Positions 36,100 to 40,749 of a DNA stretch of 64,000 nt are shown one piece after another (position 1 is the stretch's first letter; each line of letters begins with the position of its first letter). This DNA comes from Rhodospirillales bacterium (lineage in GTDB: Bacteria; Pseudomonadota; Alphaproteobacteria; Bin95). The translations under genes were made by a program, and so were the position numbers. The DNA lies in assembly GCA_038143065.1 (NCBI GenBank), contig JAYQLI010000012.1, forward strand, positions 38,076 through 102,075, given 5' to 3'. The notes beneath the pieces are model-generated. The model saw only the letters and a list, made by a program, of their open reading frames with translations, was not told where the DNA came from and ran no database searches.

Positions 36100-36367
36100 G
36101 CTTGAGCATGCACGCTTAAAAGCACTTGTAGATAGATCTAAAAATAAAGATGAAAGCTCATCGGTCTGGGATACGATTTCAGCGTATAACGGTTAGTGAG
36201 GACGTCGAAAAAAGAAACAAAAAGAAGAATAGAATACTGTCTTGACCAAAAATTCAATACGAACTTTTAGATTTTCCATGGTTATTAATTGCCCACTAGT
36301 CACAGCCCCGTTAAAACTGAGCATTTTTGAGCATCTATGATGGTAACAAGAAAAGGAGATTACCATC

Positions 36368-36598
36368 ATGCTTACCTTATTTTTGCTGCTCGCTGCTGCG
36401 GGCGGTATCCTTCGGCTTACCCTGGCCTGGCTGTTAAAACAGCGCTGGGGCGTATCTATTGGCGTCCCTCAAGCCTTAGCCGGTGCGCTTGTGGTGCTGG
36501 CAGGACTGCCTGAGTTCATTAAATCCATTCCCTTTCCAGTGCCTTTAGGCCTGACCATTGGCCTGCTGCTTCCAGACCTTTTGCTGAGAAGAGGCTGA
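36368..36598 (+). CDS. Hypothetical small membrane protein (76 aa)
   Basis: A hydrophobic ORF in a locally GC-richer patch. Its stop nearly overlaps the next start (TGATATG). Confidence 0.4.
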   Translation: MLTLFLLLAAAGGILRLTLAWLLKQRWGVSIGVPQALAGALVVLAGLPEFIKSIPFPVPLGLTIGLLLPDLLLRRG

Positions 36599-36599
36599 T

Positions 36600-36764
36600 A
36601 TGGGGCAGCTGGATATAAGACCAGGATGCATCGTGCTGATAGCAGGCTTTGATGACATCCCAGAGCACAAATTCCTTATAGAAGAAATCTATGAGGGAGT
36701 TCGTTACAGGTATGGCTCTCTCGGTCCCTTTGCAGGGGGCCACGGAGAGCCAGACAAAGGATGA
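36600..36764 (+). CDS. Hypothetical 54-aa protein, apparently translationally coupled to 36368..36598
   Basis: MGQLDIRPGCIVLIAGFDDIPEHKFLIEEIYEGVRYRYGSLGPFAGGHGEPDKG was read by hand. It falls below the ORF-track size cutoff. Confidence 0.3.
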   Translation: MGQLDIRPGCIVLIAGFDDIPEHKFLIEEIYEGVRYRYGSLGPFAGGHGEPDKG

Positions 36765-36910
36765 TCCAGCTGTGATTACTCAGGGAACAACCAACGACAG
36801 CTGAGTGTAGCTGTCAGGGAAGGGCTTAAACCCAGCCCTTCATTGTTCTTACTCACAAAATCCCAACTCAACATCAAAACCAGGGCAATTGCCCCAGCAA
36901 GGGAGACAGT

Positions 36911-38164
36911 ATGTCTGCAGACATAAAATACGCCTATAAACGGCATAACACCTGGGTCTATCCCTTAGAACCTATCCCAAGGCGCTGCAACCCATCCTTG
37001 GTTCCAAGCCTCAAGCAATCCCTCAGAACAGCTGATGCCAAACAGGCAAAAGTCAGAGTGGCAGAGCTTAATCAAACATTCACAAACCTCGTAAAGGAGG
37101 CACAGGCTCATGCTGATGCTGCAACAGATGAACCCAACCCTGAAACTACTCAGCTTGGTGTGGCTTCCTCGATATCAGCGCGCAAGGCTTCTGGGTGAGC
37201 AGCCTGTTCATGGGTTAGCGAGGAGATATCTAAAAGAGCTATCTCTAACGCTTAGACCCGGCACCACAAAGTCCATTCGCTATGCGCTGGAGCTTCTAAG
37301 TTCTCATGTAGGCAAGAAGCAAAAGATAGGGGAGCTTAGCACTGATACAGGAAGAGATATCTTAAAGCTAATATCCAAGCTCTCTCCCAATGTCAGGAAA
37401 TACGCAAAGGCTAAGGAGGCCAGCCTAACAAAGCTAGTAGAGCTCTCACAAACCTATGAGGCCATATCCCTGACACCACAAACGCAGGGCCGTATCTTCA
37501 AACAATGCAGCGCTTCCTTGACTGGTGCGTGAGAGAAGGAGAGCTAGACAGCAACCCTTGGTCAACTCTCAGCATAAGAGCAAAGCCAGAGGTCTCCCCT
37601 CATGGCGTTCTAACAGATGAGCAAGTCTCAACCCTTCTCAAAGCCAAGGATAGGGTGCTTCACAGCGCCCTTCTCTTTGGCCTGCTCACGGGAATGCGCT
37701 CAGGGGAGATCTGCGGGCTCATGGCAGAGGATGTAACCCATAAAGGCAACCTTGGGCGGTTTATCAAATCAAGCCCAACGCTATTCGGCAGCTCAAGTCA
37801 AAAGCAGCTGAACGGGAAGTACCACTTCATCAAATCCTAGAGCAGCTTCTGGATACATCCCTGCCAAAACAGGGAAGGCTATTTCCCTACCTAACAGTTG
37901 ATGCTGTGGTGAAGCGGTATGCCAAGCTCAGAAGGCTCTACCCTGAACTCCAAGGCAGCGTGTTCCACTCTACCCGCAAGTGGTTCATCACTCCAGTGTG
38001 AGCGCACAGGCACCCCTGAGCACTTCACGGCCTCCCTTGTGGGACATCACTCTGCGAGGTCTGCCAATAAGCTTACCTATAGGCTTTACTCAGGAGGCAT
38101 CAGTGATGCTCAGAAGAGAGCAATTGTGGATGGGGTGAGGTTGCCATCAGAGCTGGCGTTATAA
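36911..38164 (+). pseudogene. Tyrosine recombinase/integrase (paralog 4), frameshifted
   Basis: Contains LLFGLLTGMRSGEICGL, HSTRKWFIT and LVGHHSARSANKLTYRLYSGG. Pieces 36911..37198, 37110..37532, 37505..37840 and 37919..38164 lie in different frames. Confidence 0.75.
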
Positions 38165-38648
38165 CCCCTAAATATCCCCCGTCTGGCTGCCCTTCGCGGG
38201 TGGTCAGGCGGGGGTATGACACTAATTTTTTGTAAAATACAACTGACCAAATGCGGACATTAGCATAAAGCGCAGCGAATGACTGGGTGAGCCCGAAGCA
38301 GAATTTAGCGATAAAGTCTAATGGTTACCTTATAAATCTAAACCTAGATCGAAATCATCACACATCAGCGAAGTGCTCACAAACATTTTACAACATACGA
38401 GAATATGCTGACATATTATGCCGGTGTAACAGTGGAAGTTGCTTTGTGTCCCAAAATAGCAACTGAAATTCAACGATTATCTCTCCACCGTTACACCAAT
38501 ATGATCAGTGTTGGGATGAGTTTTTGTTCTGTTAAATGAGGCATTCAGCACCTTGAATGCGGAAGACATAAACAAAAGTTTATGGAGATCATTCAACATT
38601 GGGCAAACGTTGCCAGTTTGCGACTGTAAGTAAATCAACTTTTCTCGC

Positions 38649-39370
38649 TTAAAAATTCAGAAATGCCCGCCATGATTTTTTATCCGCATCTTCTAGATAA
38701 TCACGAGATCCTTGCACCGTAAATGAATGACGAGCACCGCCATATACCCGCGCCGTGTGCTCCACACCGGCCTCTGTAAGCTCATTCAATAGCCCCGCTA
38801 AATCATCCATCCCTGATACTGGATCAGCGGAACCGTGCAATAAGATCGTTCCTTGAGTGTTCGAATAGTCTGGCCTTCCGGGGTCGCCAATCCTCCATGA
38901 AAACTTACAAAACCATCAAGTGGAAACCCTGCACGCGCGCCTTCCAAGACAGCAGCACCGCCAAAACAATATCCTGCTAAGATGCTACGTGCTGTACCTT
39001 TTGAGGTTGCTTCAATCCCTTTTGATATCCGAGCTCTGAATTCTGAGCGATCCTTGTAAAGTTTGCCTGTTTCACGACGATAATCATCAAATCCATCTAG
39101 TTTCGCATCTACACCAAACAGATCTAAGGCAACGGCCCGATAGCCTTGTTCCGCTAGCATTCTCGCTCGACCAATTTCATAGTCATCAAGTCCGTTCCAA
39201 TCATGGATAATGTATACAGTTGTTGATGCCGTGCCTTCTGGTTCGGCGACGAATGCTTTATATATGTTATCCCCGATTTGGTATGTGATCATGCTATTGT
39301 GCCCTGCCGCAATAGGTTGCGTGGCAACTAAAAGAAAAATGGATTGTAGAATTGATCTAATAAATATCAT
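38649..39370 (-). pseudogene. Dienelactone hydrolase family protein, one frameshift
   Basis: Piece 38798..39370 (signal peptide, IIHDWNGLDDY, GYCFGG nucleophile elbow) and piece 38649..38840 (LHGSADPVSG...ARHSF) lie in different frames. Confidence 0.75.
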
Positions 39371-39525
39371 CTCGTGAACTCCTTCAACATCGTAGGACTA
39401 AATAGCCTGAATATTTAGATCTGCAACTACGTATCGATTGGGTTGAGCGCGAATGGTTTGATGGTAAATATCGAAAGTGTAATGCTGGTTCTGGTGGGGT
39501 GGCTTGCACGGCTTGGGATTATGCC

Positions 39526-39655
39526 AAATAAAAAATGGCTGACCTAGAGGAGTAGGCCAGCCAGTATCTAACTACGGGACGCGGAGGGATTGCGTCACTA
39601 ATAGGAAGACTGACTTCCCCAACCATTGCCGAAAGCCAGTCAGTGAAACAGTAAC
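39526..39655 (-). ncRNA. Candidate small RNA, copy 1 of a tandem homologous pair; 5' end uncertain
   Basis: On the minus strand, a terminator hairpin UGGCUGGCC-UACUCCUCUA-GGUCAGCCA is followed by UUUUUUAUUU. An upstream hairpin is GACGC-AAUCCCUCC-GCGUC. No CDS lies on this strand upstream. Confidence 0.45.
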
Positions 39656-39767
39656 TGGTAGATACTTGTCTCAATCACCAAATCGCATCAAGCATCTGGG
39701 CGTCAAAGTTTGACCTAACGTCACAGATTTAAAATACTGATCATCTGCCTAATTTTTGTTCAACTAA

Positions 39768-39895
39768 AATAAAAGAAAAAATGGCTGACCTGTGGGAGTA
39801 GGCCAGCCAGTCTCCAACTGTCGACACTGGGATAGCGTCAAGGAGTAGAAGGCTGACCAGAGGGAAGTCAGGCAGCCTTCGATGACACAAAAAAT
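39768..39895 (-). ncRNA. Candidate small RNA, copy 2 of a tandem homologous pair; 5' end uncertain
   Basis: On the minus strand, a terminator hairpin UGGCUGGCC-UACUCCCACA-GGUCAGCCA is followed by UUUUUUCUUUUAUUUU. Upstream hairpins are GACGC-UAUCCCA-GUGUC and GAAGGCUG-(..UUCCCUCU..)-CAGCCUUC. About 90 nt align with copy 1. Confidence 0.45.
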
Positions 39896-40148
39896 TCACC
39901 TGCAGCTAGCAAGGAATTAGTAAAATGCTAGTGTCAATTAAAGTTTACACACTTCAGATTCAGTATCAAGATAATATTTTATTTTTTTACGCTGTGTCAA
40001 TCGCAGAGTAAAAAGGGCCAGATCGCATCAAGCTCAAACCAGTTAGGTATTTTCTTTGACAATGATAATATCTAATAAATTATCTTATTAAAAAGTTTCA
40101 TCGGTGCTAAAAGAACACCTCAAAATTAAAAAATGTAAAGCAAGCCAG

Positions 40149-40749
40149 ATGTACAAAATAATAGGTTCCGTCAAAAGTCGGGCGTTTCGAGTTTTATGGA
40201 TGCTAGAAGAAATGGGTCTGACCCTATGAATATACTCATGCTCCACCCCATTCAGAGTTAGTCAAACAATATAATCCCTCTGGCAAGATACCAATTCTTA
40301 TAGACCGAGGCGCAGTTATTACAGACTCAAATGCGATCATGACTTACCTAGCAGACAAACATAAGACATTGACTGCACCAGCCGGTTCAATTGAACGTGC
40401 ACATCAGGATGCGCTTTCACATCAAATCATAGACGAAATTGATGCTGTTTTGTGGGCCGCTTCTCGTCCTTCGTTAGGCCTTAAGGCATTAGAAAACTTC
40501 CCCAATATAAAAGACAGTTTCAAACAAGAATATAAACGAAACCTTGACCGTCTTGAAAAACAGATAAAAGGGTCGTTTTTAATGGGTGACAATCTTTCTT
40601 TACCTGATTTCATCCTTGGCCATTGCGCGGGTTGGGCATATGTTGCAAAGTTTTACACTGGGAGTGAGAAATTTGGGGCATACGTTAAAAGCTTAAGAAC
40701 ACGACCGGCATACCAAGCTGCAGCTCGATTAGATATGTCTGACAGTTAA
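40149..40749 (+). pseudogene. Glutathione S-transferase, one frameshift near codon 25
   Basis: MYKIIGSVKSRAFRVLWMLEEMGL is followed by a stop. The protein continues as YEYTHAPPHSELVKQYNPSGKIPILIDRGAVITDSNAIMTYLADKH in the frame of ORF 40339..40749. There is an extra C in a CCC run at about 40225. Confidence 0.7.

Follow-up and report, generated by a model that had tools for sequence, protein, structure and literature searches.

The two RNA units on the minus strand of this locus are probably self-contained promoter–RNA–terminator cassettes of phage origin. The home of the cassette would be the position directly downstream of the scaffold gene in T7-like marine roseophages (Autographiviridae, HTVC019P/CRP-type), and alphaproteobacteria of the roseobacter type would have taken up, into their flexible islands, phage DNA that reaches from the interior of the scaffold gene to the RNA terminator. 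Within these islands the cassettes would have been retained whole, swapped among variants and spread horizontally, and the locus described here would represent two variants, B and then A, of one mobile cassette. The window, i.e. the whole stretch of 64,000 nucleotides that was analysed, belongs to an alphaproteobacterial genome of 4.63 Mb (Rfam alpha_tmRNA, 247 bits; aragorn found no tmRNA). Coordinates without a contig name refer to the window.

Two structured, terminator-ended RNA units

The minus strand carries two homologous units, the starts of which lie 246 bp apart. Their 3' ends share a 9-bp hairpin (UGGCUGGCC-loop-GGUCAGCCA) with U6 behind it, and a terminator scan returned exactly two sites, the stems listed below.

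39525 to 39665 (approximate), minus strand: copy 1, A-type RNA core; covariance model R1 (149 bits), fold and covariation
39530 to 39563, minus strand: intrinsic terminator of copy 1, stem 39563-39536 and U-tract 39535-39530; terminator scan
39771 to 39905 (approximate), minus strand: copy 2, B-type RNA core; R1 (106 bits), fold and terminator scan
39776 to 39809, minus strand: terminator of copy 2, stem 39809-39782 and U-tract 39781-39776; terminator scan

Read from 5' to 3', copy 1 consists of the single-stranded segment ACCAGUUACUGUUUCA, hairpin 1, the linker CUUCCU, hairpin 2 and the terminator. The terminator loops are UACUCCUCUA and UACUCCCACA; those of the second hairpins are AAUCCCUCC in copy 1 and UAUCCCA in copy 2, which also has a loop UUCCCUCU. 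A dodecamer, GCTTGATGCGAT on the minus strand, is found at 39693-39682 and again at 40033-40022. Every statement of the initial annotation about the two units and their terminators holds, and the loops and the dodecamer are as it gave them when the window is read directly. Compared with shuffled sequences, the folds gave z = -3.1 for copy 1 and z = -5.3 for copy 2.

Exactly four copies, two in the window and one each on contigs C5 and C7, were found in the source genome by BLAST, by nhmmer and by R1, a covariance model that was built on these four sequences. Since nhmmer and the covariance model recover the copies on C5 and C7 as full-length paralogs (E <= 1e-28), the units are beyond chance.

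Aligned modules share one order: two promoter-like boxes, P1 and P2 (the latter sometimes doubled), about 40 variable nt, a 5' single-stranded segment that defines the subtype, hairpin 1, a linker, hairpin 2 and the terminator. The linker is CU-rich and conserved as (U)CUUCCUC, the loop of hairpin 2 contains UCCCU, and the terminator stem is invariant in 31 homologs. The RNA has a three-hairpin structure backed by covariation, its base pairs being kept by compensatory change: 90.6% of cells are paired in the three helices, as compared with 30-47% when the partners are slid; changes on both sides occur in eight pairs, five in helix 1 and three in helix 2; and the covariation score was reached by none of 500 shuffles. 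The units are regarded as non-coding, since the lengths of their gaps are not divisible by three and Pfam gives no match for the ORFs that overlap them. Discrete, structured and terminator-ended RNA elements with conserved unpaired CU-rich segments, as first described, are thus what the alignment contains.

A third RNA type, C, was observed at L109:3031-3162, L153:1578-1710, L133:369-501 and L159:3351-3483. It has a different body (hairpin GCAACUGACCAGUUGC, linker CUUCUUUCCUG) and the same terminator, and lies 9 nt after a B-type unit. The terminator hairpin (UGGCUGGCC...GGUCAGCCA) also follows unrelated genes in three viral contigs of 40-59 kb (L168, L169, L170) and in L131, L146 and L149; it may be a common terminator of the phage–host gene pool.

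Homology to T7-like roseophages and promoter-like boxes

The terminator pattern was found in four IMG/VR contigs, all of which are full-length R1 matches (84-92 bits). Two of them, L018 and L019, are structural modules of T7-like podoviruses, comprising scaffold, RNA, a 153-aa ORF, major capsid, tubular proteins A and B and internal virion proteins; in both, and in L016, the RNA follows the scaffold gene and precedes the next one. At least two forms of it exist: L018 has A, and L016 and L019 have B. The closest isolates to L018 and L019 are the Roseobacter phages CRP-114, -361 and -227 (Autographiviridae), with capsid proteins 83-85% identical (CRP-114, 85%), and collinearity with CRP-114 extends from the scaffold through the internal virion proteins. 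In CRP-114 the RNA is absent and a GC hairpin stands directly after the scaffold stop codon; in L018 and L019 this hairpin sits downstream of the RNA. Among 80 related capsid loci the RNA is present in one and absent at that place in 79. Taken together with CRP-114, it is therefore an accessory insert at a fixed position in some phages only. A blastn search against isolated phages gave no match.

The homology to these phage contigs delimits the following features in the window.

39435 to 39764, minus strand: whole A segment; blastn to phage contig L018:293-623, 81% over 342 nt
39436 to 39528, plus strand: relic of a phage membrane ORF, last 31 codons of 68 aa; tblastn 97% to L018:527-733(-)
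39702 to 39724, minus strand: P2 box, GTGACGTTAGGTCAAACTTTGAC, resembling a phage RNA-polymerase promoter; conserved block in 24 aligned modules
39729 to 39764, minus strand: phage scaffold relic, last 11 codons plus stop (36 nt), ..VEQKLGR(stop)SVF(stop)
39737 to 39752, minus strand: P1 box, TTAGGCAGATGATCAG, inside the scaffold relic
39772 to 39994, minus strand: whole B segment; blastn to L019:7619-7840 (also L016), 89.7% over 223 nt
39971 to 40000, minus strand: sigma-70-like promoter before copy 2, TTGACA-18-TATTAT (11/12), predicted start about 39964, RNA about 190 nt
40001 to 40033, minus strand: A' fragment, part of a leader of copy-1 type (GCTTGATGCGATCTGG...GATTGACA) that adjoins the B segment; read directly

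Coding scraps of the phage are thus embedded in the locus. The membrane-ORF relic is truncated and convergent with copy 1. The scaffold protein of the phage ends in ...VEQKLGRSSVF, and in the window relic a stop replaces the first serine, which is to be expected because the relic is non-coding; bacterial copies retain the final scaffold codons, EQKLGRSSVF and stop, as in the phage. The source genome has no T7-like prophage, as no phage polymerase, capsid or portal was found in it. From the embedded scraps and the missing prophage it therefore follows that DNA moved from phage to chromosome, and the extent of the shared DNA, the limits of which are given above, indicates that the units are phage-derived. 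The statement that no minus-strand CDS lies upstream is correct for this genome; in phages and relatives, however, a CDS (the scaffold gene or a chimeric gene for a 155-aa protein) ends immediately upstream. Nor did the pair arise by local duplication, as had been assumed, since its members correspond to two different phage variants, B and then A. The A' fragment, a piece of copy-1-type leader ahead of the B segment, explains the shared dodecamer.

Of the blocks that precede the RNA, P1 and P2 are conserved best, even where the upstream ORF has been lost. The consensus of P2 is TTAGGTAACACTTTGAC, from which copy 1 deviates at two positions. Five copies of the promoter ATTAGGTTGCACCTAAG are present in CRP-114 and have TTAGGT..CAC.T in common with P2. 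The capsid gene of L018 and L019 is preceded by a box, CTTAGGCAGACCGACTATCGA, that is related to P1, and a TTAGG core is common to P1, P2, the five CRP-114 promoters and this pre-capsid box. P2 also resembles the SP6 promoter, with agreement at 13 of 15 positions (-15 to -1). Of the sigma-70-like promoter before copy 2, TTGACA lies just outside the phage-homologous stretch, while TATTAT is also present in the phage (comparison with L019).

Besides the copies, no TTAGGTAACAC sites that would indicate a genome-wide phage-promoter regulon were found in the genome. On the plus strand, 40036-40058 carries a P2-like site, CAGTTAGGTATTTTCTTTGAC, in the opposite direction, towards a GST gene, and is overlapped by a sigma-70-like TTGACA-16-AATTAT at 40056-40083. 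Two other interpretations of the boxes were considered. A response-regulator or CRP box at GTGAC-N5-GTAAC was dropped, as the box stands directly after the scaffold stop in the phage and matches phage promoters. An integron cassette array, suggested by the likeness of the GTTAGGT core to GTTRRRY, was rejected, because a search of 18-46 kb revealed no family of attC-like repeats and no integron integrase scored above the cut-off.

Distribution in genomic islands and proposed exchange of cassettes

In marine metagenome and IMG/VR contigs, R1 identifies about 55 copies. A relaxed terminator pattern selected 62 metagenome contigs, of which R1 confirmed about 50; together with the window and the viral loci, 61 R1 matches represent 44 distinct sequences. 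A match in a Pseudanabaena MAG, from a scan of contigs for the 5' pattern, was discarded as chance (13 bits). Phage-like loci are few, among them L109 and L153 with portal, full scaffold and two RNAs 9 nt apart. Most homologs are located in bacterial island DNA with small-gene arrays as on C5 and C7, P4-type integrases and an IS6 transposase. Tandem arrays of two or three units occur elsewhere too, with pairs in phage-like contigs. Judged by this distribution, the element is multi-copy, mobile, island-borne and patchily spread, and the self-contained unit spans from the P1 box to the terminator.

The other two copies of the source genome lie within 7.8 kb that are 93-100% identical between C5:15971-23753 and C7:18638-26436, either a duplication or two strains. 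The only strongly divergent stretch of these regions is the RNA cassette (C5:19028-19454, 63-86%). This fits replacement of the cassette by another variant, the conserved boxes and the invariant terminator acting as homology arms; strong diversifying pressure on the cassette would also fit. Adjacent to it, C5:19500-22100 (L004) and likewise C7 carry an array of small genes for proteins of about 100-130 aa (SnoaL-like, DUF3764-like and others). The spacers of this array contain partly decayed repeats of a short reverse-strand gene (ending in ...LKGVAVDGLIAHPIR and stop) and hairpins GGGCTGA-GCGA-TCAGCCC. The layout is cassette-like; there are no attC sites and no integron integrase.

At many loci the RNA is preceded by a gene for a 155-aa non-phage protein, the last 25-27 residues of which are the C-terminus of the phage scaffold. 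In a database search both a native form (132-143 aa, ...RFEKLLPH) and the chimera (...RFETAMKDKRYGSDSAYTKDVEQKLGRSSVF) were found. The chimera has no match in PHROGs or PADLOC, and it is absent from the genome of the window. Two examples are located as follows.

L117:9481-9951, minus strand: chimeric 155-aa protein
L171:8001-8468 (IMCC1335, CP046864.1): chimeric 155-aa protein

Concerning cultured bacteria, the isolate 'Rhodobacteraceae bacterium IMCC1335' shows the order terminase-small-subunit-like gene, chimera, boxes and RNA, and its chimera locus adjoins a GST gene; this gene and the GST gene next to the copies in the window are 94% identical. R1 matches the genome of the isolate at five places, one of them inside a defective phage module (G053, C1:2266799-2271482) with gp29, gp30 and portal homologs, full scaffold, RNA, the 153-aa ORF and TerS. 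This module, which has no capsid, tail or RNA polymerase and two more RNA copies within 10 kb, represents a T7-like prophage that is defective or else an element resembling a satellite. In core DNA the window's genome and IMCC1335 are only 67-72% identical, whereas island genes reach 88-99%; the islands are therefore horizontally shared. A mixed assembly as the source of the small contigs was rejected, as identity to IMCC1335 is about 67-72% for core DNA of C35 and for that of the window alike, which indicates one organism with shared islands. An integrase-bearing stretch of 1.84 kb in the window (36306-38166) has four copies in IMCC1335 (89-91%) and is a multi-copy mobile element common to both genomes. 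The idea that the terminator motif is an att site of the island integrases was abandoned: the integrases point to a tRNA remnant, and the motif occurs only in the four copies. For many genes of the window's genome, the alignment with IMCC1335 proteins is spread over two or three frames, which fits indel errors of the assembly and not true pseudogenes.

We consider it rather unlikely that the units of the window are functionless debris of recombination between phage, defective prophage or satellite and island, with structure and terminator conserved for work in the phage only. The window segments do end inside phage ORFs, in a neighbourhood rich in broken genes and integrase remnants. Given the two mismatches in the P2 box of copy 1 and the missing chimeric upstream gene of the relatives, the window copies could be decaying scraps, and selection in phages only may account for the covariation. 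Against this stand four observations. All copies, even those truncated independently, retain the stretch from P1 box to terminator in full. The junction before copy 2 creates the 11/12 sigma-70 promoter. Compensatory changes are found among the copies in bacterial contexts as well, and the cassette is the one segment that was swapped in the near-identical C5 and C7 duplicates.

A chiefly cis-acting 3' end, i.e. a structured 3' UTR with a strong terminator for the scaffold gene (in bacteria, for the chimeric 155-aa gene), is a still more doubtful reading of the element. It would account for a start immediately behind the scaffold or chimeric stop codon, for phage B-type units without a clear P2 box, and for a terminator that is the most conserved part and is reused behind unrelated genes in other viral contigs. 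It accounts poorly for conserved promoter-like boxes between stop codon and RNA, for units that persist without any upstream gene and for two or three units in tandem. Moreover, covariation accompanies the conservation of hairpins 1 and 2 and of the CU-rich linker, which is more than a terminator requires.

Absence from known RNA families, proposed mode of action and comparison with known systems

The initial annotation had proposed a duplicated native locus of trans-acting alphaproteobacterial sRNAs of AbcR or CcsR/cuckoo type, for which CU-rich loops, homologous tandem copies and intrinsic terminators spoke. This origin is now very improbable, and membership in either family is largely refuted. 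The Rfam scan it had recommended assigned no family: Rfam 15 gave nothing at gathering thresholds over the whole window, and noise only at E <= 10 in 39300-40300. CcsR/cuckoo (ar14, RF02344) had no covariance-model match in the window, at the locus or in the genome. AbcR (ar15, RF02345) likewise had none in the window, at the locus or genome-wide, the genome-wide absence being weakly informative as control genomes were silent too. The 9-mer CCUCCUCCC is carried by none of the loops AAUCCCUCC, UACUCCUCUA, UAUCCCA and UUCCCUCU; there is no DUF1127 neighbour such as adjoins the CIN1 loci of CcsR/cuckoo, and the small ORFs around and upstream of the units have no Pfam match. R1 found no copy in the 36 other genomes of the same family and BLAST none among 40 relatives. 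To this must be added the embedded phage coding scraps. A role as leader or attenuator for the dienelactone-hydrolase gene downstream (39370-38798), which has the same orientation as the units, is refuted by the comparison of contexts: the downstream gene differs at nearly every one of about 50 homologous loci, and about 165 nt, among them a phage ORF scrap, separate the hydrolase gene from the terminator. The units are not MITEs either, as there are four copies only and a repeat search showed no terminal inverted repeats.

The reading as phage-derived cassettes carries a proposal for their expression. Each unit would yield its own separate non-coding transcript, about 140-190 nt long. Those of A type would be read from their SP6/T7-like phage-polymerase boxes, and only upon infection by the cognate phage; the B copy of the window would be read by host RNA polymerase from the sigma-70 promoter. 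Speculatively, the RNA might act in trans, pairing through its unpaired CU-rich linker and loops (CUUCCUC, UCCCU, CCUCC) with purine-rich ribosome-binding regions, a plausible idea that the initial annotation had put forward. In-silico antisense scans of phage and host gave chance-level matches only. Two candidate targets, a 12-nt seed against a capsid site and a 16-nt leader stretch against the nozzle gene, were discarded as being close to chance and missing in the cognate phages.

A bolder and rather improbable extension of the cassette model is that the chromosomal copies are infection-triggered devices. From a promoter legible to it alone, the polymerase of the incoming phage would drive a copy of a phage regulatory RNA borne by host or satellite. 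With the scaffold-tailed protein that stands next to it in relatives, this RNA would hijack or block the late programme of the phage, either defensively or within a satellite of T7-like phages. If this is true, rapid swapping of cassettes would track phage variants. Boxes that resemble phage-polymerase promoters, together with a single hypervariable segment, are the pattern expected if the element takes part in conflicts of phages with their hosts or with satellites. One structured small RNA, of conserved architecture and without an Rfam family, is common to T7-like phages that abound in the sea and to the roseobacters they infect, and IMCC1335, which is cultured and has five copies and a defective phage module, makes the question directly testable. 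A caution also arises: what is taken for a 'tandem sRNA locus' on reading the letters can prove to be captured phage DNA.

Among known systems, the promoter–stem-loop mobile cassettes (PeSL) of T4-type phages, which Arbiol and colleagues reportedly described in 2010, are said to consist of early sigma-70 promoters and a stem-loop flanking protein genes. Both are small modules of promoter and hairpin at gene boundaries that are shuffled by recombination and have conserved ends and variable content. The cargo here, however, is a structured RNA of 140 nt, and the cassette has also crossed into bacterial chromosomes.

The chimeric protein resembles CpmB of SaPI, a satellite protein that competes with the scaffold of the helper phage for the capsid protein (PMC5644958), in that a non-phage protein of 155 aa bears the capsid-binding C-terminal end of the scaffold, and in IMCC1335 it adjoins a small-terminase-like gene. 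Like CpmB, it might serve as a decoy that binds capsid protein, or as the scaffold of a satellite. The protein is absent from the window's genome, and no full satellite with replication and excision functions has been delimited.

CcsR/cuckoo RNAs have two hairpins, each with CCUCCUCCC in the loop (PMC8034643). With these RNAs (ar14) and AbcR1/2 (ar15) the cassette shares several homologous hairpin RNAs in tandem and C/U-rich, anti-Shine-Dalgarno-like loops (PMC8034643). It differs from them in matching neither Rfam model, in having neither CCUCCUCCC nor a DUF1127 gene, and in its phage origin and lack of vertical conservation.

The remaining comparison is with phage-encoded small RNAs ('RNA morons'), e.g. 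prophage sRNAs of E. coli and the lambda sRNA PreS (PMC12197685; 10.1101/2024.10.31.621285). In contrast to these, the carrier here is T7-like and mostly lytic, full copies are present in host islands too, and the putative promoter resembles that of the phage's own single-subunit polymerase. What they share is a short, non-coding, self-terminated unit that is an accessory phage insert present in some close relatives only. The RNA element is a new family without an Rfam entry and a variation on the theme of phage-encoded sRNAs.
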